Below are positions 1-32,836 of a stretch of 32,836 bases of DNA, piece after piece. Source of the stretch: Giardia intestinalis (Eukaryota). The DNA lies in assembly GCA_000002435.2 (NCBI GenBank), contig AACB03000007.1; one strand, written 5' to 3'. Numbering within the stretch: the first letter of the stretch is position 1; each line of letters opens with the position of its first letter. The translations under genes and the position numbers were made by a program. The notes under the pieces are model-generated. The model was not told the DNA's origin and searched no databases. It worked only from the letters and a program-made list of their open reading frames with translations.

Positions 1-2677
1 TTTGTACATTTTCCTCCCTGCACTGTAGTACACACTTGCTTGCCAGGCTGTCATCTGTCTGATAGCAACCGCCATCTTTGAGGAGAGTATTTTCACATTG
101 AGTGCATGCTCCATTACTCACCGTAGTGCAAAATCGTGTTCGCGTATTGGCCGCACAGTTGCCATCCAGTGGTGCCTGTTGAGTGTTCTTGCACTTTGAG
201 CAGTATGCAGTTCCTCCTATCTGAGCCCCCACTCTGCGCATCCATCGTTTGTAGAACTCACGCTGCACTGGTTCATGCACGTGCCCCATTGGCAGGAGTA
301 TCAGCATCTGTATACTGAAGCATCCTCCAGCAGGACAAGCCGTACACTTATCAGCGCCCTCACCCTTGCACTCTACGCACGCATCGTTGCACTTCTTGCA
401 CTTTCTGTCAGTGTCATTTCCGTAGTAGCCCTTGAGGGTCGTGCAGTCAGATACGCATTGACTGGTTGGGGTGAGGTAGTACTCAGACAGACACTTTGTA
501 CAGACCTCCTTATCGGCACCTTCACTGGTGCACTCCAAACAGTGCTCTGTGTTACAGTTACTGATTGGTTGGCATTCAGTCGATTCAGTATTAGGTTGGA
601 GTCCTTCGTTGCACTCGCACACTTGGCTATCCTGTCCGGTGGCCTTGGGGGTAGAGTTAGCAGGGCAACTAGCAACGCACGACTTTCTGTTGAGACCAAA
701 GATGGTCTTCGTATCAGTCGTACACGTCTTACAAACCACTCCGTTGGCGCCTTTCTCACAAGTGGTGCAGTCAGTTGTTCCAGCCGACACACATGTATTG
801 CACTCCTTTGCTTCTTCATCAACGTAGTGGGTTGCCGGACAACCAGCTGTGTCAACGCACGTGCCGGTTGTGGACTCGCCATCCTTCTTCAGGTACTTCT
901 TGGTCCCAGACGTTTTACACAGGCTGCACTTCTGTTGCTCCTTGGCCACGCACACAGCGCAATTATCATCTGCACACGCGGTGCACTTCTTCTCGGTAGC
1001 GTCGATGAAGAAGCCCTCCTCATTAGTACACGCCTCTGCGCTAACACAGCTGGGTGCATCGCCAGCTTTAAAGTAGAATCCATCAACACACTCCCCACAT
1101 ATATTGTCCACCACACAGCTCTTGCAATCACCCACAGAGCATGTCACACACCCACTACCACCCTTGTTGGGCTTCTTACCACTGTCACAGGCAGTACACA
1201 CAGCGACAGTCATACCAGCTGTTGTTAGAGCTGTCGGGGCTGTGCACTGAGAGCAGCCATCTACTCCCACGTATGCCTTAGCGGTACCTTGAGGATCTAC
1301 TAGTGTGCCTAGGGGGTTACTACATGCCAACACGGACTGCTGAGCATTGGATGCCCCTGGTACCAGGAAGTACTTATTATTCTCATTAACAGCGGTACAG
1401 ACACCGTTGGCTGCTGTCTTGCACATGGACTTACCCGGCTGAGTTGACACACTATAACAACCACCCATGTATAGGAAGTATCCCGTAGTACATGATGTAC
1501 ATATATGATTATCACAAGTATTCCCATTCTTTTGACCACTATCAACACACTTCCCATCAATTGGTATCTTATTGGTCTCTCCACAGTAGGAACAGTAGTG
1601 CTTTGTGGTGCCCTGATCATCAATTATCATGGCATCACAAGCACCAGAGGTACCCCCGCAGGCAGTATCATCCTCACAGGTTTTGGTACATGTAACAGGA
1701 CTGGTACCGCTCTGCTTGTAGTTCGCTTTACAGCCAGTACACTTGAAAGTACTGGCCTCCTTTGTACACTCAGCACACCCATCGATGCCCCCATTGTTTG
1801 TGTCACTACATGAGATGCACTTTCCTGCCGGTTTTGCAACCTCAACGAGGAAGAACCCTGCCTTACAGGTCAGGCACTTATCCTCAGCAGTTTCAGCTGA
1901 GCATGTGGCACAGTTGGCGTGACAGGGGGTGCATGTTACTGAACCAACTCCGGTACTTTTGTATCCCTCCAGGCATTCTGTGCAAGTTGGATTAGCACTC
2001 GCTGTCTTCATGCAAGCCTTACAGCCAGCAATGCCTTTGTTCTTTTGTTCTGGATCCGACGCTGCGGGATCACTGCACAAACGACACACGTTGTCTTCGG
2101 TCATAAAGAGACCGTTATCAGCTCCTTGACACCCGGCGTAGTTCTTCGCCACGCAGGTCGAGGTTCCATCAAGGGTCGTCCTGGGGATCTTACTGTTATC
2201 ACAAGCTGTGCACTTCGGCTTCTTGGTAGTCGAATCAACTTCACACTGGGTACATGCTTGATCTATCGTGTTGCAGTCCCTACAAGTTCCCGACTCTGGG
2301 TCAGCATAAGTGTTTCCAGTGCACTCATTACTATTCACGCATGCATTATCCTTCAGGAACGTATTTCCCTTACAAGAGGTACACTGGGTCGCCGACGTCT
2401 CACAGGTCAGGCAAGAGTCGTTGCACTTCTCACATGCGCCGTTACTATTTAGAAAGTATCCCTCTGTGCATGCAGTACACGTGGCAGCCCCCTTGTTACT
2501 GTCTGGCGCTGTGCATGTGGCGCAGCTCTCCACTCCCTTATATCCATTCGCTCCTGTGGCATCATGACAGAGTATGCACTCCCCACCAGGGGTCACCTTG
2601 TCTGCCCCATTCTGGAATATGTACTGACTATCTGTATTACAAGCAGTGCACAGTCCTCCCTCAGCCTTTGTGCATAT
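1..2677 (-). CDS. Unit 1: partial long-type VSP. Its 3' end runs off the window start and its 5' end is at 2677. It is the paralog of the 1022-aa unit at 10272..13340.
   Basis: Nucleotides 1..2677 align almost base-for-base with 10654..13337. The start is the same ICTKAEGGLCTAC (ATA TGC ACA AAG GCT GAG.. on the minus strand, plus 2669-2677). Relative to both other long copies there is a 3-nt deletion near 88-95 and a 1-nt deletion near 52 (gtcatctg versus gtctatctg). This gives a frameshift in the last ~50 nt of the window. The second GGCY module (KDGGCYQTDRQPG) is encoded near 60-100. Confidence 0.7.
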   Translation of the reverse strand, partial: MCTKAEGGLCTACNTDSQYIFQNGADKVTPGGECILCHDATGANGYKGVESCATCTAPDSNKGAATCTACTEGYFLNSNGACEKCNDSCLTCETSATQCTSCKGNTFLKDNACVNSNECTGNTYADPESGTCRDCNTIDQACTQCEVDSTTKKPKCTACDNSKIPRTTLDGTSTCVAKNYAGCQGADNGLFMTEDNVCRLCSDPAASDPEQKNKGIAGCKACMKTASANPTCTECLEGYKSTGVGSVTCTPCHANCATCSAETAEDKCLTCKAGFFLVEVAKPAGKCISCSDTNNGGIDGCAECTKEASTFKCTGCKANYKQSGTSPVTCTKTCEDDTACGGTSGACDAMIIDDQGTTKHYCSYCGETNKIPIDGKCVDSGQKNGNTCDNHICTSCTTGYFLYMGGCYSVSTQPGKSMCKTAANGVCTAVNENNKYFLVPGASNAQQSVLACSNPLGTLVDPQGTAKAYVGVDGCSQCTAPTALTTAGMTVAVCTACDSGKKPNKGGSGCVTCSVGDCKSCVVDNICGECVDGFYFKAGDAPSCVSAEACTNEEGFFIDATEKKCTACADDNCAVCVAKEQQKCSLCKTSGTKKYLKKDGESTTGTCVDTAGCPATHYVDEEAKECNTCVSAGTTDCTTCEKGANGVVCKTCTTDTKTIFGLNRKSCVASCPANSTPKATGQDSQVCECNEGLQPNTESTECQPISNCNTEHCLECTSEGADKEVCTKCLSEYYLTPTSQCVSDCTTLKGYYGNDTDRKCKKCNDACVECKGEGADKCTACPAGGCFSIQMLILLPMGHVHEPVQREFYKRWMRRVGAQIGGTAYCSKCKNTQQAPLDGNCAANTRTRFCTTVSNGACTQCENTLLKDGGCYQTDDSLASKCVLQCREENVQ

Positions 2678-2737
2678 CTCACTCCACTATCATACTATCA
2701 CCCTCTATCACACATTGTACAGCATTCACTACCCAAG
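2678..2737 (-). promoter_or_regulatory. Inter-VSP spacer (60 nt) with a poly(A) signal AGTGAAT at 2724..2730 and a CACTATCA-type tract.
   Basis: The minus strand reads TGA CTTGGGT AGTGAAT GCTGTACAATGTGTGATAGAGGGTGATAGTATGATAGTGGAGTGAG then ATA TGC. AGTGAAT matches the Giardia AGTRAAY poly(A) signal 7 nt after the stop. Confidence 0.7.
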
Positions 2738-4585
2738 TCACGCCTTCCCCCTGCACACGAACCACCAGCAGAGGAAGCCCACGAGGCCCCCCACGACAGC
2801 GATGACAGCGACGGAGATCCCTGCTATGGCACCAGTACTGAGGCCGCTTCTGTTGCCCCCGCTGGGCTTGGTGGACACGCACGCCTCACCCTCCAGCCTG
2901 TAGTCGTCCCCACACTGGCCGCACTTGTTCTCCTCGCTGCACCTGACGCACCCGTCGATATTGCAGGCGATGCACTTCGTTCCGTCTGTGTTCGGCCTCT
3001 GGTCTTTACTGGTACAGGCCTCGCACTTATCGCCTGCTCCACAGTGCGAGCATCCGTCAACGGTACATGCGAAGCACCCGCTCCCAGCCAGGTTGGGCTT
3101 GTTGTTGTTGGTACACGCTGTACACACAGCAGCAGTCATACCAGTCTCAGATGGAGCTGCTGGGGCCGTACATGCCGAACAGCCATCTACCCCCACATAT
3201 GCCTTAGAGGTATCACCAGTGCCTACTAGTGTGCCAAGGGAGTTGCTACATGCTAATACAGACTGATTCTGATTGGTTGCCCCAGGGACTATGAAGTACC
3301 TATTGTTGGCATTAACAGCAGTACAGACACCGTTGGCTGCTGTCTTGCACATATGTTGTCCAGGTACTGTATCAACCTTGTAACAACCTCCCATATACAA
3401 GAAGTAGTTGTTAGTGCATTGTGTACATACACCTTGATCACATTGATTATTTGCTTTAGCACTATTACACTTCCCATCTATAGGATACGTATTAGCTTCT
3501 CCACAGTATGAGCAATAATGATGCTCTACACCCTTATCATCAATCACTATTGCATCGCAGGCACCAGAAGTTCCTCCACAGGCAGTATCATCTTCACAGA
3601 TCTTGGTGCATGTGACAGAGCCAGTACTGCCCTCCTTGCGATAGTTAGGCTTACAGTCAGTGCACTTGAAAGCACCGTTGTTAGAGCAGACACTGCAGCC
3701 TTCGCGACCCTTATCGTCTACGCTATCGCATGGGACGCACTTCTTCCCCTGTTGATCTGTAGTAGTTACTAAGAAGTATCCAGTCTTGCAGGTTTCACAC
3801 TTATTTGGATCACCAGCAACAGAGCATGTGGCACAGTTATCACCACACTTGTCTGTACATGTACTAGTACCACTATCAAAGAAGTATCCATCGAGACAGG
3901 CTGAGCAGGTTGGATTGTCACTTCCTGTTTTCGTACATGTCTTGCAGTTGGCCTTTCCTTCGTTACCAAGAGTTGAATCTGTCACATCACTACAAAGAGC
4001 ACACGTTTTGTCCTCCTTCATAAATAAGGCCTCGTCAGCGCCCTCGCATCCTTCAAGCGTCTTCGCCACGCAGGTCGATGTCCCGTCGAGGGCCGTCCTG
4101 GGGGTCTTATTGGTCCCGCAGTTAGTGCACTTTGGCTTCCCCGTGGCCTTGTCGAAGGAGCATGCCGTGCACTCTGCGTGTATCGTACTACATGCCTTGC
4201 ATGTTCCCGACTCCGGGTCAGCATACTTATCATTACCACAGCTATCAGTACATTGATTCCCATTGAGGTACTTCCCCTCTGGACACGATGTGCACTGGGT
4301 CGCCGATGTCTCACAGGTGGCACAGTTCCCCTCGCATGGCTTACAAAGCTTGTTGTTTAGGAAGTACCCCTCTTGACAGGTATTACACGTGGCAGGTCCT
4401 GCATTCCCTGGTGCCGTACACTTGAGACAGTTGGCCACTCCCGTATATCCATTCGCTCCCTTGATATCAGAGCACAGGATGCACTCACTACCAGGGGTCA
4501 CCTTGTCTGCCCTGTTCTGGAATATGTACTTGTTATCTGTCTTACAAGCAGTGCACAGTCCATTACTGGCCTTTGTACATATCAC
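2738..4585 (-). CDS. Unit 2: VSP paralog (615 codons, type a). The frame is intact, but there is no ATG and no signal peptide.
   Basis: ORF 2738..4585 ends in ..[17 protein letters not shown] then TGA. It contains a YMGGCY motif and many CXXC pairs. Its first codon is GTG (plus 4583-4585 is cac). An in-frame TAG lies 3 codons upstream. The N-terminus is ICTKASNGLCTACK. Confidence 0.85.
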   Translation of the reverse strand: MICTKASNGLCTACKTDNKYIFQNRADKVTPGSECILCSDIKGANGYTGVANCLKCTAPGNAGPATCNTCQEGYFLNNKLCKPCEGNCATCETSATQCTSCPEGKYLNGNQCTDSCGNDKYADPESGTCKACSTIHAECTACSFDKATGKPKCTNCGTNKTPRTALDGTSTCVAKTLEGCEGADEALFMKEDKTCALCSDVTDSTLGNEGKANCKTCTKTGSDNPTCSACLDGYFFDSGTSTCTDKCGDNCATCSVAGDPNKCETCKTGYFLVTTTDQQGKKCVPCDSVDDKGREGCSVCSNNGAFKCTDCKPNYRKEGSTGSVTCTKICEDDTACGGTSGACDAIVIDDKGVEHHYCSYCGEANTYPIDGKCNSAKANNQCDQGVCTQCTNNYFLYMGGCYKVDTVPGQHMCKTAANGVCTAVNANNRYFIVPGATNQNQSVLACSNSLGTLVGTGDTSKAYVGVDGCSACTAPAAPSETGMTAAVCTACTNNNKPNLAGSGCFACTVDGCSHCGAGDKCEACTSKDQRPNTDGTKCIACNIDGCVRCSEENKCGQCGDDYRLEGEACVSTKPSGGNRSGLSTGAIAGISVAVIAVVGGLVGFLCWWFVCRGKA

Positions 4586-4642
4586 ACTCCACTATCATAC
4601 TATCACCCTCTATCACACATTGTACAGCATTCACTACCCAAG
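4586..4642 (-). promoter_or_regulatory. Inter-VSP spacer (57 nt) with a poly(A) signal at 4629..4635.
   Basis: It has the same architecture. The plus strand is atcacactccactatcatactatcaccctctatcacacattgtacagcattcactacccaag. Confidence 0.7.
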
Positions 4643-6508
4643 TCACGCCTTCCCTCTACATATGAACCACCAGCAGAGGAAGCCCACGAGGCCCCCCACG
4701 ACAGCGACCACAGCGACGGAGATCCCCGCGATGGCCCCCGTGGAGAGCCCGCTCCTGTTGGTGCCAGAGGACACACACATGCCATCCCTCGGGACATAGC
4801 CCTCCTCGCACTCCCCGCAGACGCCCTCTGCGCTGCACCGCATGCACCTCTCTATGTCACAGACAATGCACTGGGTGCCGTCCAGGCTGGGTCTCTGGTC
4901 TTTATTGGTACATGCCTCACACTTGTTGTCTGCGCTGCAGTGAGAGCAGCCCTGGGCCGGACACACATAGCAGGTGCTTCCAGCCATGTTGGGCTTCTTA
5001 TTGTCCTCAGCACACACCTCGCACATCCCGTCGATGGCGCAGCTCTTGCACCCGCCGACCGCACACAGGGTGCACCCGCTGCCATCCTTGTTGGGCTTCT
5101 TCGTCTTGTCGCACGCACTACAGACCGCCGCGGCCATCGCATTGGCGGCTGGCGCCTGCGGGGCCGCGCACGCCGTGCAGTCTAGCACGCCGACGTACGC
5201 CTTGTCGCCCGCGGTCGCTCCCACAGGGTTGCCACAGGCAAGCACGGACTGCTGAGCAGCAGAGTCCCCGGGAATCTTGAAGTAGCGCCCGACCGGTGTG
5301 GTGCAGAACCCACTTGGAGCCGCAGAGCACATGAGGTTGCCAGGAGCCTTCGACACATCATAGCAACCACCCATATAGAGGAAGTAGTTGTTGGTGCACC
5401 GCGTACATACGCCATCGGCGCAGGTATTACCTGCAAGTGCATTGGTGCACTTCCCATTAATAGGGCCATAGCCGGCGCCAACACACTTTGAACAGTAAGA
5501 GAGCATGCTGCCGTCGTTGCCGACCACGATGGCGTCGCAGGCCCCTGCTGTCCCTCCACATGCAGTCTCATCTTCACAGGTCTTTGTACATGTGAGGTCG
5601 CTAGGTTCTCCGCTGGGTCTGTAGTTGGGCTTACATTCAGTGCATTTGAGGGACCCCACGCCGCCTGTGCACTCGGCACAGCCTGGAATCCCACTTGTCT
5701 CGTCATCACAGAGAACGCATGTCTTAGGCGGGCCATCCTTAAGGAAGTACCCCGGCATGCATCTTGTACATGTGTTGATTTGACCCGCTGTTCCGCACTC
5801 TGCGCAGTTTCCTGTGCAGGCCTCGCAGGCGTTTCCGTTGACTTTATACCCGTCGACACAAGCCTCGCAGGTGCCTTTTGCGGTGCACAGCTTGCAGTTC
5901 TGGACTCCGCCCTTACCATTGTCGCCGCACTGCACGCACTTCGAGGCGTCGTAGAAGTGCGTCTTGCCCACTTTGCACTCGGCCTCATCAACACAGGTCG
6001 TTGTCCCATCCAGCTCGTCTCTGACCGTCTTACTACCGCAGTCGGTGCACTTCGGCTTTCCCGTGGCGTCGTCGTATGCACACGCGGTGCATCCTTGTAT
6101 CTCACTGCAGGCCTTACAGGTCCAGGTCTTCTTGTCCGCATAGTTACCATTGTCACATCCACCAGCATCTACACAAGTGTTACCATCCTTCAGGTACTTC
6201 CCCTCAACGCAGGCGGTACACTGAGTCGGAGTATCAGCTGAGCAAGCAGAGCAGCCGTCTCCGCACTTCACACATGCACTGTCCTTCGTAACGAACCCTG
6301 CTTGACACTCTGTACACGTGGCCGGTCCGCTAGTGCCCGTGTGGGAGCATTCTGAGCATCCAGCGACTCCCATGACCCCGTTTCTATCTGTCGTATCAGA
6401 GCACAGTATGCACTCACTACCCTTCTCTGGTGTTGCAGCCGGGTTCTTGAACAGGCCGTTATCTGCCTTACAAGCAGTGCACAGTCCTCCCTCAGCCTTT
6501 GTGCATAT
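4643..6508 (-). CDS. Unit 3: VSP paralog (type b, about 621 codons measured from ICTKAEGG). It has an in-frame ATG at 6371-6373 (MGVAGCSECSH) 45 codons into the unit.
   Basis: ORF 4643..6373 ends in ..WWFICRGKA then stop. The frame stays open upstream to 6508 (ICTKAEGGLCTACKADNGLFKNPAATPEKGSECILCSDTTDRNGV-MGVAG..). It contains a GGCY motif. The C-terminal module is ..CDKTKKPNKDGSGCTLCAVGGCKSC... Confidence 0.85.
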   Translation of the reverse strand: MCTKAEGGLCTACKADNGLFKNPAATPEKGSECILCSDTTDRNGVMGVAGCSECSHTGTSGPATCTECQAGFVTKDSACVKCGDGCSACSADTPTQCTACVEGKYLKDGNTCVDAGGCDNGNYADKKTWTCKACSEIQGCTACAYDDATGKPKCTDCGSKTVRDELDGTTTCVDEAECKVGKTHFYDASKCVQCGDNGKGGVQNCKLCTAKGTCEACVDGYKVNGNACEACTGNCAECGTAGQINTCTRCMPGYFLKDGPPKTCVLCDDETSGIPGCAECTGGVGSLKCTECKPNYRPSGEPSDLTCTKTCEDETACGGTAGACDAIVVGNDGSMLSYCSKCVGAGYGPINGKCTNALAGNTCADGVCTRCTNNYFLYMGGCYDVSKAPGNLMCSAAPSGFCTTPVGRYFKIPGDSAAQQSVLACGNPVGATAGDKAYVGVLDCTACAAPQAPAANAMAAAVCSACDKTKKPNKDGSGCTLCAVGGCKSCAIDGMCEVCAEDNKKPNMAGSTCYVCPAQGCSHCSADNKCEACTNKDQRPSLDGTQCIVCDIERCMRCSAEGVCGECEEGYVPRDGMCVSSGTNRSGLSTGAIAGISVAVVAVVGGLVGFLCWWFICRGKA

Positions 6509-6568
6509 CTCACTCCACTATCATACTATCACCCTCTATCACACATTGTACAGCATTCACTACCCAAG
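6509..6568 (-). promoter_or_regulatory. Inter-VSP spacer (60 nt) with a poly(A) signal at 6555..6561.
   Basis: Same conserved spacer. Confidence 0.7.
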
Positions 6569-8320
6569 TCACGCCTTCCCCCTGCACACGAACCACCAGC
6601 AGAGGAAGCCCACGAGGCCCCCCACGACAGCGATGACAGCGACGGAGATCCCCGCGATGGCCCCCGTGGAGAGCCCGCCCCTGTTGGTACTCATAGACAC
6701 ACAGGAGGTCCCACTGCTGTCTAGACTGTACCCATCAACACACTCCCCACACACATCATCCACCACACAGCTCTTGCAGTCACTCACAGAGCACAGCACA
6801 CACCCACTACCATCCCTGTTGGGCTTCTTACTACTGTCACAAGAGGTACACACAGCGACAGTCATACCAGCCCCAGTCAGAGCTGCTGGGGCTGTACACT
6901 GCGAACAGCCATCCACCCCCACATATGCCTTAGAGGTATCACCAGTGCCTACTAGTGTGCCAAGGGAGTTGCTACATGCCAATACAGACTGATTCTGATT
7001 GGTTGCCCCAGGGACTATGAAGTACCTATTGTTGGCATTAACAGCGGTACAGACACCGTTGGCTGCTGTCTTGCACATATGTTGTCCAGGTACTGTATCA
7101 ACCTTGTAACAACCTCCCATATACAAGAAGTAGTTGTTAGTGCATTGTGTACATACACCTTGATCACATTGATTATTTGCTTTAGCACTATTACACTTCC
7201 CATCTATAGGATACGTATTAGCTTCTCCACAGTATGAGCAATAATGATGCTCTACACCCTTATCATCAATCACTATTGCATCGCAGGCACCAGAAGTTCC
7301 TCCACAGGCAGTATCATCTTCACAGATCTTGGTGCATGTGACAGAGCCAGTACTGCCCTCCTTGCGATAGTTAGGCTTACAGTCAGTGCACTTGAAAGCA
7401 CCGTTGTTAGAGCAGACACTGCAGCCTTCGCGACCCTTATCGTCTACGCTATCGCATGGGACGCACTTCTTCCCCTGTTGATCTGTAGTAGTTACTAAGA
7501 AGTATCCAGTCTTGCAGGTTTCACACTTATTTGGATCACCAGCAACAGAGCATGTGGCACAGTTATCACCACACTTGTCTGTACATGTACTAGTACCACT
7601 ATCAAAGAAGTATCCATCGAGACAGGCTGAGCAGGTTGGATTGTCACTTCCTGTTTTCGTACATGTCTTGCAGTTGGCCTTTCCTTCGTTACCAAGAGTT
7701 GAATCTGTCACATCACTACAAAGAGCACACGTTTTGTCCTCCTTCATAAATAAGGCCTCGTCAGCGCCCTCGCATCCTTCAAGCGTCTTCGCCACGCAGG
7801 TCGATGTCCCGTCGAGGGCCGTCCTGGGGGTCTTATTGGTCCCGCAGTTAGTGCACTTCGGCTTCCCCGTGGCCTTGTCGAAGGAGCATGCCGTGCACTC
7901 TGCGTGTATCGTACTACATGCCTTGCATGTTCCCGACTCCGGGTCAGCATAAGTGTTTCCATCGCATCCAGTATCTTGTACACATTGATTACTCTTCAGG
8001 TACTTCCCCTCTGGGCACGATGTACAATGATTCTGACCACTTCCATCGCAGGTCAGACAAGCTTCATTACATTTGACACATGTCTGAGAGTTCTTGTAGT
8101 ATCCATCTTGGCACTCTGTACACGTGGCAGGTCCTGGACTACTGTCTGACTTGGTACACTGTGCGCAGTTAGCCACCCCTGTATATCCATCTGCCCCATT
8201 GACATCATGACAGAGGATGCACTCACTACCAGGCTTCTGAGGTGTAACTGGGTTCTTGAACAGGCCGTTAGCTGTCTTACAAGCAGTGCACACTCCATCA
8301 CTGGCTGCTGTGCATATCAC
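6569..8320 (-). CDS. Unit 4: VSP paralog (583 codons, type c). It is intact and has no ATG.
   Basis: The ORF ends CRGKA then stop. Its start is GTG (8318-8320 cac) preceded by an in-frame TAG. The N-terminus is ICTAASDGVCTACKTANGLFKNPVTPQKPGSECILCHDVNG. The central ~430 aa are identical to unit 2. The C-terminal module is CDSSKKPNRDGSGCVLCSVSDCKSCVVDDVCGECVDGYSLDSSGTSCVSMSTNRGG. Confidence 0.85.
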   Translation of the reverse strand: MICTAASDGVCTACKTANGLFKNPVTPQKPGSECILCHDVNGADGYTGVANCAQCTKSDSSPGPATCTECQDGYYKNSQTCVKCNEACLTCDGSGQNHCTSCPEGKYLKSNQCVQDTGCDGNTYADPESGTCKACSTIHAECTACSFDKATGKPKCTNCGTNKTPRTALDGTSTCVAKTLEGCEGADEALFMKEDKTCALCSDVTDSTLGNEGKANCKTCTKTGSDNPTCSACLDGYFFDSGTSTCTDKCGDNCATCSVAGDPNKCETCKTGYFLVTTTDQQGKKCVPCDSVDDKGREGCSVCSNNGAFKCTDCKPNYRKEGSTGSVTCTKICEDDTACGGTSGACDAIVIDDKGVEHHYCSYCGEANTYPIDGKCNSAKANNQCDQGVCTQCTNNYFLYMGGCYKVDTVPGQHMCKTAANGVCTAVNANNRYFIVPGATNQNQSVLACSNSLGTLVGTGDTSKAYVGVDGCSQCTAPAALTGAGMTVAVCTSCDSSKKPNRDGSGCVLCSVSDCKSCVVDDVCGECVDGYSLDSSGTSCVSMSTNRGGLSTGAIAGISVAVIAVVGGLVGFLCWWFVCRGKA

Positions 8321-8387
8321 ACTCCACTATCACACATTATCACACTATCACCTTCTATCACACATTGTACAGCATTCACTACCTAAG
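8321..8387 (-). promoter_or_regulatory. Inter-VSP spacer (67 nt) with a poly(A) signal at 8374..8380. It carries an extra cacacattat insertion.
   Basis: The minus strand reads TGA CTTAGGT AGTGAAT. This is an exact match to the extended VSP 3' motif remembered as ACTYAGRTAGTRAAY. The CACTATCA tract is longer here. Confidence 0.7.
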
Positions 8388-23800: not shown

Positions 23801-23878
23801 AGGTGTAACTGGGTTCTTGAACAGGCCGTTAGCTGTCTTACAAGCAGTGCACAGTCCTCCCTCAGCCTTTGTGCATAT
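20823..23878 (-). pseudogene. Unit 11: long-type VSP with a 1-nt deletion frameshift near 22447. It is split into two ORFs and has a type b N-terminus.
   Basis: ORF 22436..23776 (..HGCSQCTAPQL then stop) and ORF 20823..22457 (MYSPAALTTAGMTAAVCTAC.. to CRGKA) together are colinear with unit 6. Plus 22441-22452 reads gctgcggggctg, where unit 6 has gctgctggggctg at about 11891. The N-terminal part is open to 23878 and is of the MGVAGCSECSH type. Confidence 0.75.
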
Positions 23879-23938
23879 CTCACTCCACTATCATACTATC
23901 ACCCTCTATCACACATTGTACAGCATTCACTACCCAAG
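23879..23938 (-). promoter_or_regulatory. Inter-VSP spacer (60 nt) with a poly(A) signal at 23925..23931.
   Basis: Same conserved spacer. Confidence 0.7.
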
Positions 23939-25779
23939 TCACGCCTTCCCCCTGCACACGAACCACCAGCAGAGGAAGCCCACGAGGCCCCCCACGACAG
24001 CGATGACAGCCACGGAGATCCCTGCTATGGCACCAGTACTGAGGCCGCTTCTGTTGCCCCCGCTGGGCTTGGTGGACACGCACGCCTCACCCTCCAGCCT
24101 GTAGTCGTCCCCGCACTGGCCGCACTTGTTCTCCTCGCTGCACCTGACGCACCCGTCGATATTGCAGGCGATGCACTTCGTTCCGTCTGTGTTCGGCCTC
24201 TGGTCTTTACTGGTACAGGCCTCGCACTTATCGCCTGCTCCACAGTGCGAGCATCCACTAACGGTACATGGGAAGCACCCGCTCCCAGCCAGGTTGGGCT
24301 TGTTGTTGTTGGTACACGCTGTGCACGTGGCGGCAGTCATGCCACCATCAGATGGAGCTGCTGGGGCTGTACACTGTGAACAGTTGATACCCCCACGTAT
24401 GCCTTAGCAGTATCACCAGTGCCTACTAGTGTGCCTAGGGGGTTCTCGCAGGCCAGGACAGACTGATCAGTATTGGATGCCCCCGGGACCAGGAAGTACC
24501 GGCCGTTCTCGCTGGGGGCGGTGCACCTCCCTCCCTCGGCAGTCTTGCACATGTGGCTGCCAGGAGCCTTCGACACATCATAGCAGCCGCCCATGTACAG
24601 GAAGAACCCGGCAGCACACCGGGTGCAGACGCCATTGGCACAGGTGTTGTCACCCTTAGTTCCTGTGCAGATCCCATCGATGGGGAACGTGGCGGGGTCT
24701 CCGCACAGCGAGCAGTACTGGGAGAACGCCCCGGCGCTGTCAACGACGACCGCCCCGCAGGCCCCAGACGTCCCCCCGCAGGCCGTGGGGTCCTCGCAGG
24801 CCTTTGTGCACTTCACCGGATTGGTTCCCTCCTTGCGATAGTTGAGCTTACAGGAGTTGCAGGTCAACGAGCCAGCGAAGGTGCACGTTGCACACCCATC
24901 GACTCCATCTGTCGGGTTATCACAGGGGACGCATGTGCCGGGGGAAGTGCCCCCTCTCAAGAAGAACCCGGTCTTGCAGGTTTGGCATTTGGTCTTGTCA
25001 GCTTTCTCAGAGCAGGTTGCGCAGTTCTCGCCACAGGCGTCACATGTGAAGCCGCTGTTGGTGTTCTTGATGTACCCCTCCAGGCACTCTGTGCAGGTCG
25101 GCGGTGTGGCGCCAGTCCTCGAGCACTTCTTACAGCCGACGATGCCCTGGTTCTTCTTCTCTTGCTCTGTCACTGCGTCGCTGCATAGAATACACGCTGT
25201 TGCGTCGTCTTTCATGAATAGCCCACTATCGGTGGCTTTGCAGCCGTCGTCTGTCTTTTCCACGCACGTCGTCGTCCCGTCGGCAGCAGTTCTTACCAGC
25301 TTCCCGTTACAATCGGTGCACCTCGGCTTTCCCGTGGCATCATTATATTCACATGCGGTGCACCCAGCTATGTCGGGATCACATGCCTTGCAGGTCCAGG
25401 TCTTCTTGTCTGCGTACTGGGTTGCCTCGCATCCACTAGCATCTACACATTGATTATTCTTCAGGTACTTCCCCTCAACGCAGGCGGTACACTGAGTCGG
25501 AGTATCAGCTGAGCAAGCAGAGCAGCCGTCTCCGCACTTCACACATGCACTGTCCTTCGTAACGAACCCTGCTTGACACTCTGTACACGTGGCCGGTCCG
25601 CTAGTGCCCGTGTGGGAGCATTCTGAGCATCCAGCGACTCCCATGACCCCGTTTCTATTTATAGTATCGGAGCACAGTATGCACTCACTACCCTTCTCTG
25701 GTGTTGCAGCCGGGTTCTTGAACAGGCCGTTATCTGCCTTACAAGCAGTGCACAGTCCTCCCTCAGCCTTTGTGCATAT
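23939..25779 (-). pseudogene. Unit 12: VSP with a 1-nt deletion frameshift near 24388. It has a type b N-terminus, a type d centre and a type a C-terminus.
   Basis: ORF 24337..25644 ends ..[23 protein letters not shown] then stop, out of frame. ORF 23939..24340 carries the normal [20 protein letters not shown]-terminus. Plus 24383-24392 reads cagttgatac, where the paralog at 8831 has cagttgagtac. The frame is open 5' to 25779. Confidence 0.75.
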
Positions 25780-25839
25780 CTCACTCCACTATCATACTAT
25801 CACCCTCTATCACACATTGTACAGCATTCACTACCCAAG
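25780..25839 (-). promoter_or_regulatory. Inter-VSP spacer (60 nt) with a poly(A) signal at 25826..25832.
   Basis: Same conserved spacer. Confidence 0.7.
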
Positions 25840-27687
25840 TCACGCCTTCCCCCTGCACACGAACCACCAGCAGAGGAAGCCCACGAGGCCCCCCACGACA
25901 GCGATGACAGCCACGGAGATCCCTGCTATGGCACCAGTACTGAGGCCGCTTCTGTTGCCCCCGCTGGGCTTGGTGGACACGCACGCCTCACCCTCCAGCC
26001 TGTAGTCGTCCCCGCACTGGCCGCACTTGTTCTCCTCGCTGCACCTGACGCACCCGTCGATATTGCAGGCGATGCACTTCGTTCCGTCTGTGTTCGGCCT
26101 CTGGTCTTTACTGGTACAGGCCTCGCACTTATCGCCTGCTCCACAGTGCGAGCATCCGTCAACGGTACATGCGAAGCACCCGCTCCCAGCCAGGTTGGGC
26201 TTGTTGTTGTTGGTACACGCTGTACACACAGCAGCAGTCATGCCACCATCAGATGGAGCTGCTGGGGCTGTACACTGTGAACAGTTGAGTACCCCCACGT
26301 ATGCCTTAGCAGTATCACCAGTGCCTACTAGTGTGCCAAGGGGGTTACCACATGCTAATACAGACTGATTCTGATTGGTTGCCCCAGGGACTACGAAGTA
26401 CCTATTGTTGGCATTAACAGCGGTACAGACACCGTTGGCTGCTGTCTTGCACATATGTTGTCCAGGTACTGTATCAACCTTGTAACAACCTCCCATATAC
26501 AAGAAGTAGTTGTTAGTGCATTGTGTACATACACCTTGATCACATTGATTATTTGCTTTAGCACTATTACACTTCCCATCTATAGGATACGTATTAGCTT
26601 CTCCACAGTATGAGCAATAATGATGCTCTACACCCTTATCATCAATCACTATTGCATCGCAGGCACCAGAAGTTCCTCCACAGGCAGTATCATCTTCACA
26701 GATCTTGGTGCATGTGACAGAGCCAGTACTGCCCTCCTTGCGATAGTTAGGCTTACAGTCAGTGCACTTGAAAGCACCGTTGTTAGAGCAGACACTGCAG
26801 CCTTCGCGACCCTTATCGTCTACGCTATCGCATGGGACGCACTTCTTCCCCTGTTGATCTGTAGTAGTTACTAAGAAGTATCCAGTCTTGCAGGTTTCAC
26901 ACTTATTTGGATCACCAGCAACAGAGCATGTGGCACAGTTATCACCACACTTGTCTGTACATGTACTAGTACCACTATCAAAGAAGTATCCATCGAGACA
27001 GGCTGAGCAGGTTGGATTGTCACTTCCTGTTTTCGTACATGTCTTGCAGTTGGCCTTTCCTTCGTTACCAAGAGTTGAATCTGTCACATCACTACAAAGA
27101 GCACACGTTTTGTCCTCCTTCATAAATAAGGCCTCGTCAGCGCCCTCGCATCCTTCAAGCGTCTTCGCCACGCAGGTCGATGTCCCGTCGAGGGCCGTCC
27201 TGGGGGTCTTATTGGTCCCGCAGTTAGTGCACTTCGGCTTCCCCGTGGCCTTGTCGAAGGAGCATGCCGTGCACTCTGCGTGTATCGTACTACATGCCTT
27301 GCATGTTCCCGACTCCGGGTCAGCATACTTATCATTACCACAGCTATCAGTACATTGATTCCCATTGAGGTACTTCCCCTCTGGACACGATGTGCACTGG
27401 GTCGCCGATGTCTCACAGGTGGCACAGTTCCCCTCGCATGGCTTACAAAGCTTGTTGTTTAGGAAGTACCCCTCTTGACAGGTATTACACGTGGCAGGTC
27501 CTGCATTCCCTGGTGCCGTACACTTGAGACAGTTGGCCACTCCCGTATATCCATTCGCTCCCTTGATATCAGAGCACAAGATGCACTCCCCACCAGGAGT
27601 CACCTTGTCTGCCCTGTTCTGGAATATGTACTGACTATCTGTATTACAAGCAGTGCACACTCCACTACTGGCCTTTGTGCATATCAC
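25840..27687 (-). CDS. Unit 13: VSP paralog (615 codons, type a, close to unit 2). It is intact and has no ATG.
   Basis: The start is GTG (27685-27687) preceded by TAG. The N-terminus is ICTKASSGVCTACNTDSQYIFQNRADKV. It ends CRGKA then stop. The central and C-terminal modules are as in unit 2. Confidence 0.85.
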   Translation of the reverse strand: MICTKASSGVCTACNTDSQYIFQNRADKVTPGGECILCSDIKGANGYTGVANCLKCTAPGNAGPATCNTCQEGYFLNNKLCKPCEGNCATCETSATQCTSCPEGKYLNGNQCTDSCGNDKYADPESGTCKACSTIHAECTACSFDKATGKPKCTNCGTNKTPRTALDGTSTCVAKTLEGCEGADEALFMKEDKTCALCSDVTDSTLGNEGKANCKTCTKTGSDNPTCSACLDGYFFDSGTSTCTDKCGDNCATCSVAGDPNKCETCKTGYFLVTTTDQQGKKCVPCDSVDDKGREGCSVCSNNGAFKCTDCKPNYRKEGSTGSVTCTKICEDDTACGGTSGACDAIVIDDKGVEHHYCSYCGEANTYPIDGKCNSAKANNQCDQGVCTQCTNNYFLYMGGCYKVDTVPGQHMCKTAANGVCTAVNANNRYFVVPGATNQNQSVLACGNPLGTLVGTGDTAKAYVGVLNCSQCTAPAAPSDGGMTAAVCTACTNNNKPNLAGSGCFACTVDGCSHCGAGDKCEACTSKDQRPNTDGTKCIACNIDGCVRCSEENKCGQCGDDYRLEGEACVSTKPSGGNRSGLSTGAIAGISVAVIAVVGGLVGFLCWWFVCRGKA

Positions 27688-27755
27688 ACTCCACTATCAC
27701 ACTATCATCACACTATCACCCTCTATCACACATTGTACAGCATTCACTACCCAAG
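27688..27755 (-). promoter_or_regulatory. Inter-VSP spacer (68 nt) with a poly(A) signal at 27742..27748.
   Basis: It has an expanded tract (cactatcacactatcatcacactatcaccctctatcacacattg). Confidence 0.7.
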
Positions 27756-29502
27756 TCACGCCTTCCCCCTGCACACGAACCACCAGCAGAGGAAGCCCAC
27801 GAGGCCCCCCACGACAGCGATGACAGCGACGGAGATCCCCGCGATGGCCCCCGTGGAGAGCCCGCTCCTGTTGGTACTCATAGACACACAGGAGGTCCCA
27901 CTGCTGTCTAGACTGTATCCATCAACACACTCCCCACACACATCATCCACCACACAGCTCTTGCAATCACCCACAGAGCACAGCACACACCCAGTACCAT
28001 CCTTGTTGGGCTTCTTATCACTGTCACAGGAGGTGCATGTAGCGGCAGCCATACCAGCTGTTGTTAGAGCTGCTGGGGCCGTACATGCCGAACAGCCATC
28101 TACCCCCACATATGCCTTAGAGGTATCACCAGTGCCTACTAGTGTGCCAAGGGGGTTACCACATGCTAATACAGACTGATTCTGATTGGTTGCCCCAGGG
28201 ACTATGAAGTACCTATTGTTGGCATTAACAGCGGTACAGACACCGTTGGCTGCTGTCTTGCACATATGTTGTCCAGGTACTGTATCAACCTTGTAACAAC
28301 CTCCCATATACAAGAAGTAGTTGTTAGTGCATTGTGTACATACACCTTGATCACATTGATTATTTGCTTTAGCACTATTACACTTCCCATCTATAGGATA
28401 CGTATTAGCTTCTCCACAGTATGAGCAATAATGATGCTCTACACCCTTATCATCAATCACTATTGCATCGCAGGCACCAGAAGTTCCTCCACAGGCAGTA
28501 TCATCTTCACAGATCTTGGTGCATGTGACAGAGCCAGTACTGCCCTCCTTGCGATAGTTAGGCTTACAGTCAGTGCACTTGAAAGCACCGTTGTTAGAGC
28601 AGACACTGCAGCCTTCGCGACCCTTATCGTCTACGCTATCGCATGGGACGCACTTCTTCCCCTGTTGATCTGTAGTAGTTACTAAGAAGTATCCAGTCTT
28701 GCAGGTTTCACACTTATTTGGATCACCAGCAACAGAGCATGTGGCACAGTTATCACCACACTTGTCTGTACATGTACTAGTACCACTATCAAAGAAGTAT
28801 CCATCGAGACAGGCTGAGCAGGTTGGATTGTCACTTCCTGTTTTCGTACATGTCTTGCAGTTGGCCTTTCCTTCGTTACCAAGAGTTGAATCTGTCACAT
28901 CACTACAAAGAGCACACGTTTTGTCCTCCTTCATAAATAAGGCCTCGTCAGCGCCCTCGCATCCTTCAAGCGTCTTCGCCACGCAGGTCGATGTCCCGTC
29001 GAGGGCCGTCCTGGGGGTCTTATTGGTCCCGCAGTTAGTGCACTTCGGCTTCCCCGTGGCCTTGTCGAAGGAGCATGCCGTGCACTCTGCGTGTATCGTA
29101 CTACATGCCTTGCATGTTCCCGACTCCGGGTCAGCATAAGTGTTTCCATCGCATCCAGTATCTTGTACACATTGATTACTCTTCAGGTACTTCCCCTCTG
29201 GGCACGATGTACAATGATTCTGACCACTTCCATCGCAGGTCAGACAAGCTTCATTACATTTGACACATGTCTGAGCGTTCTTATAGTATCCATCTTGGCA
29301 CTCTGTACACGTGGCAGGTCCTGGACTACTGTCTGACTTGGTACACTGTGCGCAGTTAGCCACCCCTGTATATCCATCTGCCCCATTGACATCATGACAG
29401 AGGATGCACTCACTACCAGGCTTCTGAGGTGTAACTGGGTTCTTGAACAGGCCGTTATCTGCTTACAAGCAGTGCACACTCCATCACTGGCCTTGTGCAT
29501 AT
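27756..29502 (-). pseudogene. Unit 14: VSP paralog (type c). Its 5' ~120 nt are degraded by several 1-nt deletions.
   Basis: ORF 27756..29363 is intact from the internal GTG through to CRGKA. At 29455-29502 the 5' end is gccgttatctgcttacaag..ctggccttgtgcatatc, versus gccgttagctgtcttacaag..ctggctgctgtgcatatc in unit 4. The frame is lost here, and minus ORF 29240..29518 drifts into another frame. Confidence 0.7.
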
Positions 29503-29576
29503 CACACTCCACTATCACACATTATCACACTATCACCTCTATCACACCATCACCATTGTAAGCATTCACTACCAAG
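29503..29576 (-). promoter_or_regulatory. Inter-VSP spacer (74 nt, degraded) with a poly(A) signal at 29564..29570.
   Basis: Relative to the spacer at 8321..8387 it has several indels (tgtaagcattcactaccaagtca versus tgtacagcattcactacctaagtca). Confidence 0.6.
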
Positions 29577-31427
29577 TCACGCCTTCCCCCTGCACACGAA
29601 CCACCAGCAGAGGAAGCCCACGAGGCCCCCCACGACAGCGATGACAGCCACGGAGATCCCTGCTATGGCACCAGTACTGAGGCCGCTTCTGTTGCCCCCG
29701 CTGGGCTTGGTGGACACGCACGCCTCACCCTCCAGCCTGTAGTCGTCCCCACACTGGCCGCACTTGTTCTCCTCGCTGCACCTGACGCACCCGTCGATAT
29801 TGCAGGCGATGCACTTCGTTCCGTCTGTGTTCGGCCTCTGGTCTTTACTGGTACAGGCCTCGCACTTACCGCCTGCTCCACAGTGCGAGCATCCGTCAAC
29901 GGTACATGCGAAGCACCCGCTCCCAGCCAGGTTGGGCTTGTTGTTGTTGGTACACGCTGTACACACAGCAGCAGTCATACCAGTCTCAGATGGAGCTGCT
30001 GGGGCCGTACATGCCGAACAGCCATCTACCCCCACATATGCCTTAGAGGTATCACCAGTGCCTACTAGTGTGCCAAGGGAGTTGCTACATGCCAATACAG
30101 ACTGATTCTGATTGGTTGCCCCAGGGACTATGAAGTACCTATTGTTGGCATTAACAGCGGTACAGACACCGTTGGCTGCTGTCTTGCACATGGACTTACC
30201 CGGCTGAGTTGACACACTATAGCAGCCTCCCATGTACAAGAAGTATCCTGTAGTACATGATGTACATGTATGATTGTTACAGTTATTCCCCTCTTTCTTT
30301 TCATTCCCAACACATAGTCCATTAATGGGGAACTCACTGTCCTTTCCACAGTATGAACAGTAGTGATGCTCCTTCCCTGTGTTGTCGATCACTATTGCAT
30401 CGCAGGCTCCAGAAGTACCACCACAAGCCGTGGGGTCTTCACAAGTCTTCTCACACGTGACCGCTCCTCCAGCCCCTACCTTCTTTTGGTAGTTCACCTT
30501 ACAAGAGTCACAAGTAAACGAGCCAGAGAGGGTGCACGTTGCACAGCCGGGCACTCCATCTGTCGGATCGTCGCATGGGACGCACTTCTTGGCCCCGTCA
30601 TTCTTTAAGAAAAACCCTGGCTTGCACTTTTCACAGGTATCTATAGCGCCTCCTGGCCCGCACTTTCCGCAATCGCCAGCGCACGCAACGCATACGGCGG
30701 GGTTACCGTTCCCGCTGTCGTAGTAGCCATCGAGGCACGTCTTGCATTCTGGCTTAGCGCCGTTCTTGCTGCAGGTCCCGCAACCGGGGCTTCCCTTGTT
30801 ATTATCTGTCTTGCTGCTATCGTTGCTACATAGTATGCATTCGGCATCTCCGTCGCTCAAGAAGTTCTCACCAGTTGCTCCGCTTTGAGTGCAGGTGCCG
30901 GCGTCTATACACGTAGTCGTCCCGTCGGCCTCTTCCTTGACTATCTTAGCTCCATTACATGCCGTGCACTTTGGGCCCCCAGTTGCCGGGTTGTACTCAC
31001 ACGTGGTGCAATCAGTTATTGCAGACGCCTTGCAGGTCATTGTCACAGGGTCAGCATAAGTGTTTCCAGTGCATCCATCACTATTCACGCATGCATTATC
31101 CTTCAGGAACGTATTTCCCTTACAAGAGGTACACTGGGTCGCCGATGTCTCACAGGTCAGACAAGTACCATCACATTTGGTACATGCCTGAGAGTCCATG
31201 TAGTACCCATCTTGACACTCGGTGCACGTGGCCGCTCCTGTATTGCCACCAGGTGCCGTGCACTTGAGACAGTTGGCCACTCCCTTGTTCTCATTCGCTC
31301 CTGTGGCATCATGACAGAGGATGCACTCCCCACCAGGGGTCACCTTGTCTGCCCCATTCTGGAATATGTACTGACTATCTGTATTACAAGCAGTGCATAC
31401 TCCATTACTGGCCTGTGTGCATATCAC
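29577..31427 (-). CDS. Unit 15: VSP paralog (616 codons, variant of type d). It is intact and has no ATG.
   Basis: The start is GTG (31425-31427) preceded by TAG. The N-terminus is ICTQASNGVCTACNTDSQYIFQNGADKVTPGGECILCHDATGANENKG. The centre diverges from other units (..CEYNPATGGPKCTACNGAKIVKEEADG..). The C-terminal module is as in unit 2. It ends CRGKA then stop. Confidence 0.85.
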   Translation of the reverse strand: MICTQASNGVCTACNTDSQYIFQNGADKVTPGGECILCHDATGANENKGVANCLKCTAPGGNTGAATCTECQDGYYMDSQACTKCDGTCLTCETSATQCTSCKGNTFLKDNACVNSDGCTGNTYADPVTMTCKASAITDCTTCEYNPATGGPKCTACNGAKIVKEEADGTTTCIDAGTCTQSGATGENFLSDGDAECILCSNDSSKTDNNKGSPGCGTCSKNGAKPECKTCLDGYYDSGNGNPAVCVACAGDCGKCGPGGAIDTCEKCKPGFFLKNDGAKKCVPCDDPTDGVPGCATCTLSGSFTCDSCKVNYQKKVGAGGAVTCEKTCEDPTACGGTSGACDAIVIDNTGKEHHYCSYCGKDSEFPINGLCVGNEKKEGNNCNNHTCTSCTTGYFLYMGGCYSVSTQPGKSMCKTAANGVCTAVNANNRYFIVPGATNQNQSVLACSNSLGTLVGTGDTSKAYVGVDGCSACTAPAAPSETGMTAAVCTACTNNNKPNLAGSGCFACTVDGCSHCGAGGKCEACTSKDQRPNTDGTKCIACNIDGCVRCSEENKCGQCGDDYRLEGEACVSTKPSGGNRSGLSTGAIAGISVAVIAVVGGLVGFLCWWFVCRGKA

Positions 31428-31484
31428 ACTCCACTATCATACTATCACCCTCTATCACACATTGTACAGCATTCACTACCCAAG
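31428..31484 (-). promoter_or_regulatory. Inter-VSP spacer (57 nt) with a poly(A) signal at 31471..31477.
   Basis: Same conserved spacer. Confidence 0.7.
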
Positions 31485-32836
31485 TCACGCCTTCCCCCTG
31501 CACACGAACCACCAGCAGAGGAAGCCCACGAGGCCCCCCACGACAGCGATGACAGCCACGGAGATCCCTGCTATGGCACCAGTACTGAGGCCGCTTCTGT
31601 TGCCCCCGCTGGGCTTGGTGGACACGCACGCCTCACCCTCCAGCCTGTAGTCGTCCCCGCACTGGCCGCACTTGTTCTCCTCGCTGCACCTGACGCACCC
31701 GTCGATATTGCAGGCGATGCACTTCGTTCCGTCTGTGTTCGGCCTCTGGTCTTTACTGGTACAGGCCTCGCACTTATCGCCTGCTCCACAGTGCGAGCAT
31801 CCGTCAACGGTACATGCGAAGCACCCGCTCCCAGCCAGGTTGGGCTTGTTGTTGTTGGTACACGCTGTACACACAGCAGCAGTCATACCAGTCTCAGATG
31901 GAGCTGCTGGGGCCGTACATGCCGAACAGCCATCTACCCCCACATATGCCTTAGAGGTATCACCAGTGCCTACTAGTGTGCCAAGGGAGTTGCTACATGC
32001 TAATACAGACTGATTCTGATTGGTTGCCCCAGGGACTACGAAGTACCTATTGTTGGCATTAACAGCAGTACAGACACCGTTGGCTGCTGTCTTGCACATA
32101 TGTTGTCCAGGTACTGTATCAACCTTGTAACAACCTCCCATATACAAGAAGTAGTTGTTAGTGCATTGTGTACATACACCTTGATCACATTGATTATTTG
32201 CTTTAGCACTATTACACTTCCCATCTATAGGATACGTATTAGCTTCTCCACAGTATGAGCAATAATGATGCTCTACACCCTTATCATCAATCACTATTGC
32301 ATCGCAGGCACCAGAAGTTCCTCCACAGGCAGTATCATCTTCACAGATCTTGGTGCATGTGACAGAGCCAGTACTGCCCTCCTTGCGATAGTTAGGCTTA
32401 CAGTCAGTGCACTTGAAAGCACCGTTGTTAGAGCAGACACTGCAGCCTTCGCGACCCTTATCGTCTACGCTATCGCATGGGACGCACTTCTTCCCCTGTT
32501 GATCTGTAGTAGTTACTAAGAAGTATCCAGTCTTGCAGGTTTCACACTTATTTGGATCACCAGCAACAGAGCATGTGGCACAGTTATCACCACACTTGTC
32601 TGTACATGTACTAGTACCACTATCAAAGAAGTATCCATCGAGACAGGCTGAGCAGGTTGGATTGTCACTTCCTGTTTTCGTACATGTCTTGCAGTTGGCC
32701 TTTCCTTCGTTACCAAGAGTTGAATCTGTCACATCACTACAAAGAGCACACGTTTTGTCCTCCTTCATAAATAAGGCCCTCGTCAGCGCCCCTCGCATCC
32801 TTCAAGCGTCTTCGCCACGCAGGTCGATGTCCCGTC
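31485..32836 (-). CDS. Unit 16: partial VSP paralog (type a). Its 5' end runs off the window, and it has two 1-nt homopolymer insertions near 32780-32800.
   Basis: ORF 31485..32798 ends CRGKA then stop. It is colinear with units 2 and 13 until 32775-32795, where it reads ggccct..gcccct versus ggcct..gccct in the other copies. These give the spurious reading MRGALTRALFMKEDK. Confidence 0.75.

Follow-up and report, generated by a model that had tools for sequence, protein, structure and literature searches.

A 32,836-base stretch of Giardia DNA (hereafter the window, analyzed along its whole length) consists of a single head-to-tail array of 16 units from the family of variant-specific surface proteins (VSPs), all read from the minus strand. 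The units lack the signals with which intact VSP genes begin, are mosaics of one another, and hold long exact tracts in common with intact genes elsewhere. Collectively, these observations make it very likely that the window is a pseudo-VSP 'linear array' from assemblage A of G. intestinalis (WB itself or a very near relative), which recombines internally and with intact genes and may serve as a silent reservoir of sequence.

A standard-code scan of the whole window placed every VSP-type open reading frame (ORF) on the minus strand, with 15 frames ending in CRGKA and a stop as compared to none on the plus strand. GC skew is negative throughout the window, which fits a single coding strand. Units were numbered U01 to U16 in reading order, with boundaries set at the CRGKA-TGA stops. 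These stops lie at window positions 31485, 29577, 27756, 25840, 23939, 20823, 19002, and 17133, followed by 15207, 13398, 10272, 8388, 6569, 4643, and 2738. Ordinary units are 1809-1926 nt long and three are longer (U06, 3116 nt; U11, 3126 nt; U16, at least 2737 nt). The initial annotation of this DNA had described 16 minus-strand units, three of them long and each with its own tail. The strand, the count, and the two size classes are all recovered here, but only 15 tails are visible, since the window edges cut U16 at base 1 and U01 at base 32836. Four unit types can be told apart by their 5' halves: type A (U01, U03, U04, U07, U10, U13, and U15), type B (U09 and U14, together with the heads of U05 and U06), type C (U02, U08, and U12), and the long type D (U11 and U16, together with the 3' half of U06). 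A single unbroken frame runs from spacer to CRGKA in 11 units.

The units belong to the VSP family, as first annotated. One representative of each of the four types matched the Pfam VSP family PF03302 (bit cutoff of 31.4) with E-values of 4e-37 to 1e-80. Among the 12 units with translated ORFs (U02-U04 and U07-U15), to which composition and motif counts apply, cysteine makes up 11.8-13.1% of residues, and each unit carries 24-45 CXXC, 0-1 CXC, and 1-2 GGCY motifs. Re-inspection of the 3' ends found a hydrophobic transmembrane (TM) segment followed by [V/I]CRGKA and TGA in all 15 that are visible; the mean Kyte-Doolittle (KD) hydropathy of this segment is ~2.04-2.12 in the 12 translated units. 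The sequence after each TGA is CTT[G/A]GGTAGTGAATGC, which holds the Giardia AGTRAAY signal, and AGTGAAT is located 7-8 nt past the TGA in 15 of 15 cases. A Giardia-type poly(A) signal after the stop had also been part of the initial annotation. The extended VSP polyadenylation signal (PAS), ACTTAGRTAGTRAAYRY, was identified with 0-1 mismatch after 14 stops and as a 1-nt deletion variant after the fifteenth. A VSP-specific extended polyadenylation motif, ACUUAGRUAGURAAYRY, that overlaps or lies just past the stop has been described (Rodriguez-Walker et al., 2022; bioRxiv 10.1101/2022.03.07.483299). Two other identities were considered and rejected. The units are not high cysteine membrane proteins (HCMP), given that CRGKA and the PAS are present and CXC is nearly absent (0-1 per unit). 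An origin in G. muris, considered for its psiVSP arrays, was ruled out by the tails, which are CRGKA here and GCRGK in the VSPs of G. muris (Xu et al., 2020; PMC7641422).

The 5' ends of the units are incomplete. The long frame of every unit opens directly after a stop with WS[E/V]ICTKAEGGLCTAC, inside the mature cysteine-rich domain, and unit starts align to residue ~106 of an intact VSP (P0001; KAE8304683.1), just past the first GGCY module of that protein. The earliest in-frame Met is at codon 48-194 across the units. When judged by a simple mean-hydropathy check, no signal-peptide-like stretch follows any Met, with a maximum mean KD of 0.56 as compared to 1.93 for the P0001 leader and ~2.0 for the TM segment of the units. 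No PyAATGTT initiator (Inr) was detected on either strand of the 32.8 kb, whereas 135 of the 136 complete VSPs of WB are reported to have this element (Rodriguez-Walker et al., 2022; bioRxiv 10.1101/2022.03.07.483299). The genes of three solitary VSPs that do not occur in arrays (P0022, P0003, and P0094; L001-L003) served as positive controls for the Inr and signal peptide. Among these, the complete VSP L003 (from an ENA contig) has TAATGTT at its ATG, A/T-rich sequence upstream, and the hydrophobic leader MLLAIYFAMGALAIEC.

Between the TGA of one unit and the first sense codon of the next lies a spacer of 51-72 nt, except upstream of the U03 frame, where the distance is 114 nt owing to 1-nt indels. 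The range of 57-78 bp given previously describes these spacers too, with the count carried some 6 nt further inward. Spacers are not AT-rich, and each closes all three frames. They consist of repeats of the GTGATAG type, which supply TGA and TAG stops in two of the frames (for example, 6518-6568 on the minus strand), and the remaining frame is closed by the upstream TGA and by the TAG in CTTGGGTAG. Tandem Repeats Finder reported only short repeats of the GTGATAG type, in two spacers. With all three frames closed in this way, the units are predicted to be unable to yield surface proteins, whether on their own or by read-through. ATGs that are conserved in the spacers were evaluated as starts and rejected, as the frame of AGTGAATGCTG ends after 5 codons and that of GATATGCAC after 4, and neither is in the VSP frame. 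In other WB arrays the first spacer ATG stays open, and older annotations there start with 'MLYSDSDSDS...' (P0121, P0020, P0008, and P0048).

Neither feature of a complete VSP, an in-frame ATG within PyAatgTT or an N-terminal signal peptide, was found in any unit. What was found are the features of a linear array, namely more than three head-to-tail units, very short (~60 bp) intergenic regions, and members without Inr, start codon, or signal peptide. Because every unit lacks a start codon, a signal peptide, and the PyAATGTT initiator, the units are 5'-truncated VSP cassettes, termed psiVSP or pVSP in earlier work (Xu et al., 2020, PMC7000408; Rodriguez-Walker et al., 2022, bioRxiv 10.1101/2022.03.07.483299), and are not complete VSP genes. 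The initial annotation, which treated the array as 16 VSP paralogs, therefore does not hold at the level of genes. The missing signals, together with the literature on other arrays, suggest that the array is transcriptionally silent.

When the window was compared with itself, long matches appeared at offsets of 10.53-10.65 kb and 21.2 kb, and inverted matches were absent. These offsets indicate that the array is a five-unit, ~10.6 kb higher-order repeat present in three copies on the minus strand. Copy a comprises U02-U06 (20823-31484; 10,662 nt), copy b comprises U07-U11 (10272-20822; 10,551 nt), and copy c comprises U12-U16 (1-10271; truncated by the window edge and hence at least 10,271 nt). 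Identity among the three copies is patchy, with blocks that are 95-100% identical located beside blocks that can barely be aligned.

Patchiness is also evident among individual units. Exact tracts of 200-1562 nt are present in units that are only 66-88% identical overall, and a crude estimate of the probability of such tracts arising by chance, given the overall divergence, yields log10P values of -21 to -84. The longest of these joins U06 and U11, which have 1562 identical bases at 88% overall identity. All type-A units contain an identical core of ~750-930 nt, and their 5' and 3' flanks switch partners. For example, the 5' 1383 nt of U04 are identical to U07, and a 498-nt tract in its 3' part is identical to U12, a type-C unit. 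U02 is also composite, and from 5' to 3' comprises a U08/U12-like segment, a unique middle, a U11/U16-like segment, a U10/U13-like segment, and a U15/U01-like end. The flanks of U02 are 99-100% identical to other units. Its central ~500 nt (about 30480-31000, minus strand) had no close match among the other units of the window and were presumably imported from a VSP outside of it. Long exact tracts between otherwise divergent units, improbable by chance, show that unequal crossing-over or gene conversion has taken place recently within the array.

The best protein matches to the units are all from Giardia intestinalis, and the top matches are from WB, within assemblage A. This comparison, proposed in the initial annotation as a means of assigning species and assemblage, thus places the array in G. 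intestinalis assemblage A, with WB as the best match. A WB protein (P0002; KAE8304682.1) matches both U09 and U14 at 375 of 375 amino acids, beginning in U09 at Met48. An entry from the old WB annotation (XP_001705784.1) is 99.5% identical over 427 amino acids to U15 from its first Met, and 'VSP S7' is 97.7% identical to the head of U06. Two scans of metagenomic DNA, one with the CRGKA-stop-PAS junction and one with the tail WWF.CRGKA followed by a stop, returned no match.

Several exact tracts are held in common with intact genes. The last 311 amino acids of U14 differ by one mismatch from the intact, signal-peptide-bearing WB VSP P0001, and the longest exact tract between them is 296 amino acids. 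The N-terminal two-thirds of the two proteins are far more divergent (73% identity overall), and the breakpoint, near residue 313 of U14, is sharp. U08 and P0025 have an exact tract of 125 amino acids; P0025 is a WB 'High cysteine membrane protein Group 1' with a signal peptide and the tail YRGRK. This suggests that exchange reaches beyond bona fide VSPs. Further exact tracts were identified with leader-bearing WB proteins P0004 (88 amino acids) and P0012 (69 amino acids). The initial annotation had regarded the array as a candidate hot-spot for generation of the antigenic repertoire. Its recombination component is supported by the mosaic tracts and by the tracts in common with intact genes, and a function as a reservoir would be a further step.

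The accessions of P0001 and KAE8304682.1 are adjacent and are on the same 4.02-Mb record. KAE8304682.1, annotated in WB as a 'High cysteine protein' of 378 amino acids, is identical to type B over 375 amino acids and then ends in KRG and a stop, where the copies in the window run on to CRGKA. The WB reference therefore holds a further, frameshifted type-B copy beside P0001. This copy could be the head of the array described here or of a sister array.

Length differences between diverged units largely preserve the reading frame. Coding indels are multiples of three in 6 of 6 cases between U15 and U10, in 8 of 8 between U12 and U02, and in 14 of 15 between U05 and U14, and all coding indels of at least 3 nt are multiples of three. 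The ratio of nonsynonymous to synonymous substitution rates (dN/dS) is 0.22-0.64 for 11 pairs with dS of 0.01 to 1.7. Variation among the units was thus shaped at the level of protein.

Frame-breaking 1-nt indels were nonetheless identified in five of the 16 units, and all but one are in or beside short runs of G or C. U16 has four 1-nt deletions (at about 52, 229, 287, and 328), three of them in G-runs. U01 has two 1-nt insertions in G-runs near 32780-32800 relative to six identical paralogs. In U03, five 1-nt indels within 29461-29576 delay the opening of the frame to 114 nt past the upstream TGA. The frame of U05 is broken by 1-nt indels at about 24362-24386 and that of U06 by a 1-nt deletion in a C-run at about 22445. 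The array is accordingly not 'uninterrupted', as had been stated, at the level of coding sequence. Some of these indels may be assembly errors, because homopolymer frameshift errors are noted for the PacBio draft (Xu et al., 2020; PMC7000408). Frame-breaking indels are also concentrated at the two edges of the window, no more than a few hundred bases in (1-330 and 32780-32836), which suggests unpolished ends of a long-read contig rather than biology. The window, both ends of which lie inside a unit and carry G-run indels, may be a whole unplaced long-read contig. The long-read assembly of WB is reported to leave 33 contigs that are rich in gene families (Xu et al., 2020; PMC7000408), and unassembled WB contigs are reported to hold only VSP pseudogenes (Rodriguez-Walker et al., 2022; bioRxiv 10.1101/2022.03.07.483299).

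We propose that the units originated as VSP copies cut at the 5' end, which would have left them without promoter or initiator, ATG, signal peptide, and first cysteine module while retaining the remainder of the ectodomain together with the TM segment, CRGKA tail, and VSP-type poly(A) signal. The array would then have grown by tandem duplication of the five-unit, ~10.6 kb block, and its units would be reshuffled on an ongoing basis through unequal crossing-over and segmental gene conversion with one another. Exchange would also take place with intact VSP or HCMP genes elsewhere. Such an array could act as a reservoir from which blocks of sequence are copied into expression-competent VSPs over evolutionary time. 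A number of points weigh against this reading. Silence is deduced from missing signals and from the literature on other arrays. The tracts in common with intact genes could equally derive from intact genes copied into the array. Frameshifts in five of the 16 units would also fit simple decay, though some may be assembly errors. Both dN/dS of less than 1 and in-frame indels may be a legacy of functional ancestors or donors and need not reflect selection on the array. Lastly, isolated private substitutions number only six (four synonymous and two nonsynonymous), which is too few to decide.

The proposal of a silent, recombining array can be weighed against other explanations. That the window encodes 16 ordinary, expressible VSP genes, which use an internal ATG or an unconventional start and directly enlarge the expressed repertoire, is extremely unlikely. 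The unbroken frames of 11 units, the proper VSP poly(A) signal after every visible stop, and the practice in the older WB annotation of calling such ORFs 'VSP' from the first ATG (e.g., XP_001705784.1) are what such genes would predict. However, no in-frame ATG occurs before codon 48-194, no signal-peptide-like segment follows any of them, and a product without a signal peptide would not reach the surface. Moreover, the spacers of 51-72 nt are not AT-rich, and the PyAATGTT element reported for all but one of the 136 complete WB VSPs (Rodriguez-Walker et al., 2022; bioRxiv 10.1101/2022.03.07.483299) is missing from the window. A more serious competitor, which we nevertheless regard as somewhat unlikely, is that a truncated VSP block was recently amplified by unequal crossing-over and is now passively homogenized, inert, and decaying, with no role in diversification. 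An alternative raised earlier for WB arrays is that they are 'remains of discarded vsp genes' (Adam et al., 2010; PMC2996952). The frame-breaking indels already present in five of the 16 units are as expected for such debris, and the very small number of private point mutations implies young or freshly homogenized copies in which open frames could persist without selection. Yet long exact tracts are held in common with four intact genes that bear signal peptides, from which it appears that sequence moves between the array and functional loci. Decay of this kind is also at odds with coding indels of at least 3 nt that are all multiples of three and with dN/dS below 1, and several of the frameshifts resemble homopolymer assembly errors at the window ends.

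A role for the array as a template for regulatory RNA, in which read-through or antisense transcription over 15 near-identical VSP 3' regions yields double-stranded or small RNAs for silencing by RNA interference (RNAi) or microRNAs, is very unlikely. An RNAi model of VSP control was reportedly put forward by Prucca and colleagues in 2008. Antisense transcription is reported to be common in Giardia (PMC1885649), and 15 copies of the conserved 3' coding region and PAS on one strand provide a context for such a role. However, the window contains no promoter-like element, no inverted repeat (0 inverted self-matches), and no known RNA family, the psiVSP arrays of G. muris are essentially untranscribed (Xu et al., 2020; PMC7641422), and nothing in the sequence specifically demands such a role. 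The array could also be a selected donor archive rather than debris, with frames that are kept open and with kilobase tracts that are actively copied to and from intact VSPs (for example, P0001). Selection to keep frames open is suggested by indels that are only in-frame, by dN/dS of 0.2-0.6, and by how few private mutations there are, but we consider this strong version of the reservoir doubtful.

The individual units, all on the minus strand, are arranged as follows. U01 (31485-32836; type A) has its 5' part cut by the window edge and its CRGKA and TGA end at 31485. The type-C mosaic U02 (29577-31484; 1908 nt) has a spacer at 31434-31484 and an open frame at 29577-31433 of 618 codons, in which the first ATG does not occur before codon 78. 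U03 (27756-29576; type A, 1821 nt) has its cluster of 1-nt indels in the first ~115 nt, and U04 (25840-27755; type A, 1916 nt) has an open frame of 617 codons. U05 (23939-25839) combines a B-type head with a TKPS-type tail and is split into two ORFs (24337-25788 and 23939-24403). The long unit U06 (20823-23938; 3116 nt) has a B-like head fused to a D-type 3' half. The second repeat copy begins with U07 (19002-20822; type A, 1821 nt), which has a 72-nt spacer of GTGATAG-type repeats (20751-20822) and an open frame of 582 codons, and continues with U08 (17133-19001; type C, 1869 nt) with an open frame of 605 codons. U09 (15207-17132; type B, 1926 nt, 624 codons) is 99.5% identical to U14, and U10 (13398-15206; type A, 1809 nt, 585 codons) is 98.8% identical to U13. 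The long type-D unit U11 (10272-13397; 3126 nt) has a single frame of 1024 codons with 45 CXXC and 2 GGCY motifs and its first in-frame Met at codon 194. Upstream of U12 (8388-10271; type C, 1884 nt, 610 codons) the PAS is a perfect match to the consensus, ACTTAGGTAGTGAATGC. The remaining units are U13 (6569-8387; type A, 1819 nt, 585 codons), U14 (4643-6568; type B, 1926 nt, 624 codons), U15 (2738-4642; type A, 1905 nt, 617 codons), and U16 (1-2737; long type D), the 3' end of which is cut by the window edge and which is 99.45% identical to U11.

Each D-type and B-type unit also contains an ORF in an alternate frame of the minus strand, with lengths of 172 and 329 codons (373-888, 11033-11548, 21584-22099, 5182-6168, and 15746-16732). 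Plus-strand and alternate-frame ORFs of 169-363 amino acids (up to 363 amino acids on the plus strand) had no Pfam match and most likely arise as a side effect of the biased composition of VSP coding sequence, which is poor in stops. No other genes, tRNAs, or Rfam RNAs were identified in the window, in which Rfam returned zero matches. The window likewise contains no runs of (TAGGG)3 or more, no rRNA, and no non-VSP gene, and the array fills it from end to end.

Arrays of this kind have already been described in WB, and our findings refine a known picture without adding a novel class of element. Adam et al. (2010; PMC2996952) reported linear arrays of up to 10 members with ~60 bp spacers and with downstream members that lack an Inr, hypothesized that they are reservoirs or remnants, and presented their silence as a hypothesis. 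The psiVSP arrays of WB were subsequently annotated (Xu et al., 2020; PMC7000408) and analyzed (Rodriguez-Walker et al., 2022; bioRxiv 10.1101/2022.03.07.483299). As described in these sources, the WB arrays resemble the window in their head-to-tail orientation, ~60 bp spacers, absence of Inr, start codon, and signal peptide, CRGKA tails, extended PAS, evidence for duplication and recombination, and tendency to break assemblies. In contrast, the longest array reported in 2010 had 10 members, whereas the window has 16, and both of its ends fall within a unit. The array's head, possibly an intact VSP with an Inr, falls outside of the window. The accessible portions of the WB array literature (Adam et al., 2010; Xu et al., 2020; Rodriguez-Walker et al., 2022) made no mention of a 16-unit length, a five-unit ~10.6 kb repeat, or kilobase identical tracts, and those of the literature on pseudo-VSP arrays made none of in-frame-only indels, dN/dS of 0.2-0.6, or an exact tract of 296 amino acids with an intact VSP.

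The psiVSP arrays of G. muris are similar to the window in comprising tandem VSP copies without signal peptides. They are adjacent to telomeres, comprise 5-23 non-transcribed copies, and have been proposed as a reservoir, and relaxed phylogenetic clustering of the psiVSPs suggests that gene conversion has involved intact VSPs as well (Xu et al., 2020; PMC7641422). They differ from the window in their GCRGK rather than CRGKA tail, and the window carries no telomere repeat or other positional information to set beside their telomere-adjacent location. Like the units, the HCMP and CRMP proteins combine a cysteine-rich CXXC ectodomain with one C-terminal TM segment, and P0025 has a 125-amino-acid tract in common with U08. 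However, HCMPs are rich in CXC and are without CRGKA and extended PAS, whereas the units have 0-1 CXC, CRGKA at 15 of 15 visible ends, and the PAS.

More distant parallels are provided by the subtelomeric VSG pseudogene arrays and mosaic VSGs of Trypanosoma brucei, MSG of Pneumocystis, vls of Borrelia, and pilS of Neisseria. These likewise comprise tandem copies that are promoter-less and 5'-truncated or defective, and like the window they exhibit block-wise identity with expression-competent genes, as in a silent archive subject to segmental gene conversion. The proteins involved are unrelated to those of Giardia, and the analogy is functional only. VSP switching in Giardia is thought to be epigenetic or post-transcriptional, and to our knowledge neither a dedicated expression site nor conversion within an infection has been shown in Giardia.

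Accounts of antigenic variation in Giardia usually present it as a switch from one to another of some 136 intact VSP genes, with no rearrangement of DNA. The silent pseudo-VSP arrays hold an amount of sequence comparable to that of the intact genes. The array described here provides a clean example in which units are not decaying independently but exchange identical kilobase blocks and have exact tracts in common with intact genes, which is the behavior that a sequence reservoir needs. For purposes of annotation, none of the 16 ORFs belongs in a tally of VSP genes. Markers are available in the U14/P0001 junction and at the points where identical tracts break off, and with them array-to-gene conversion could be followed on laboratory time scales. 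Were the array indeed a selected archive, G. intestinalis would make new mosaic antigens through DNA recombination, as trypanosomes do, in addition to switching by epigenetic and RNAi mechanisms.

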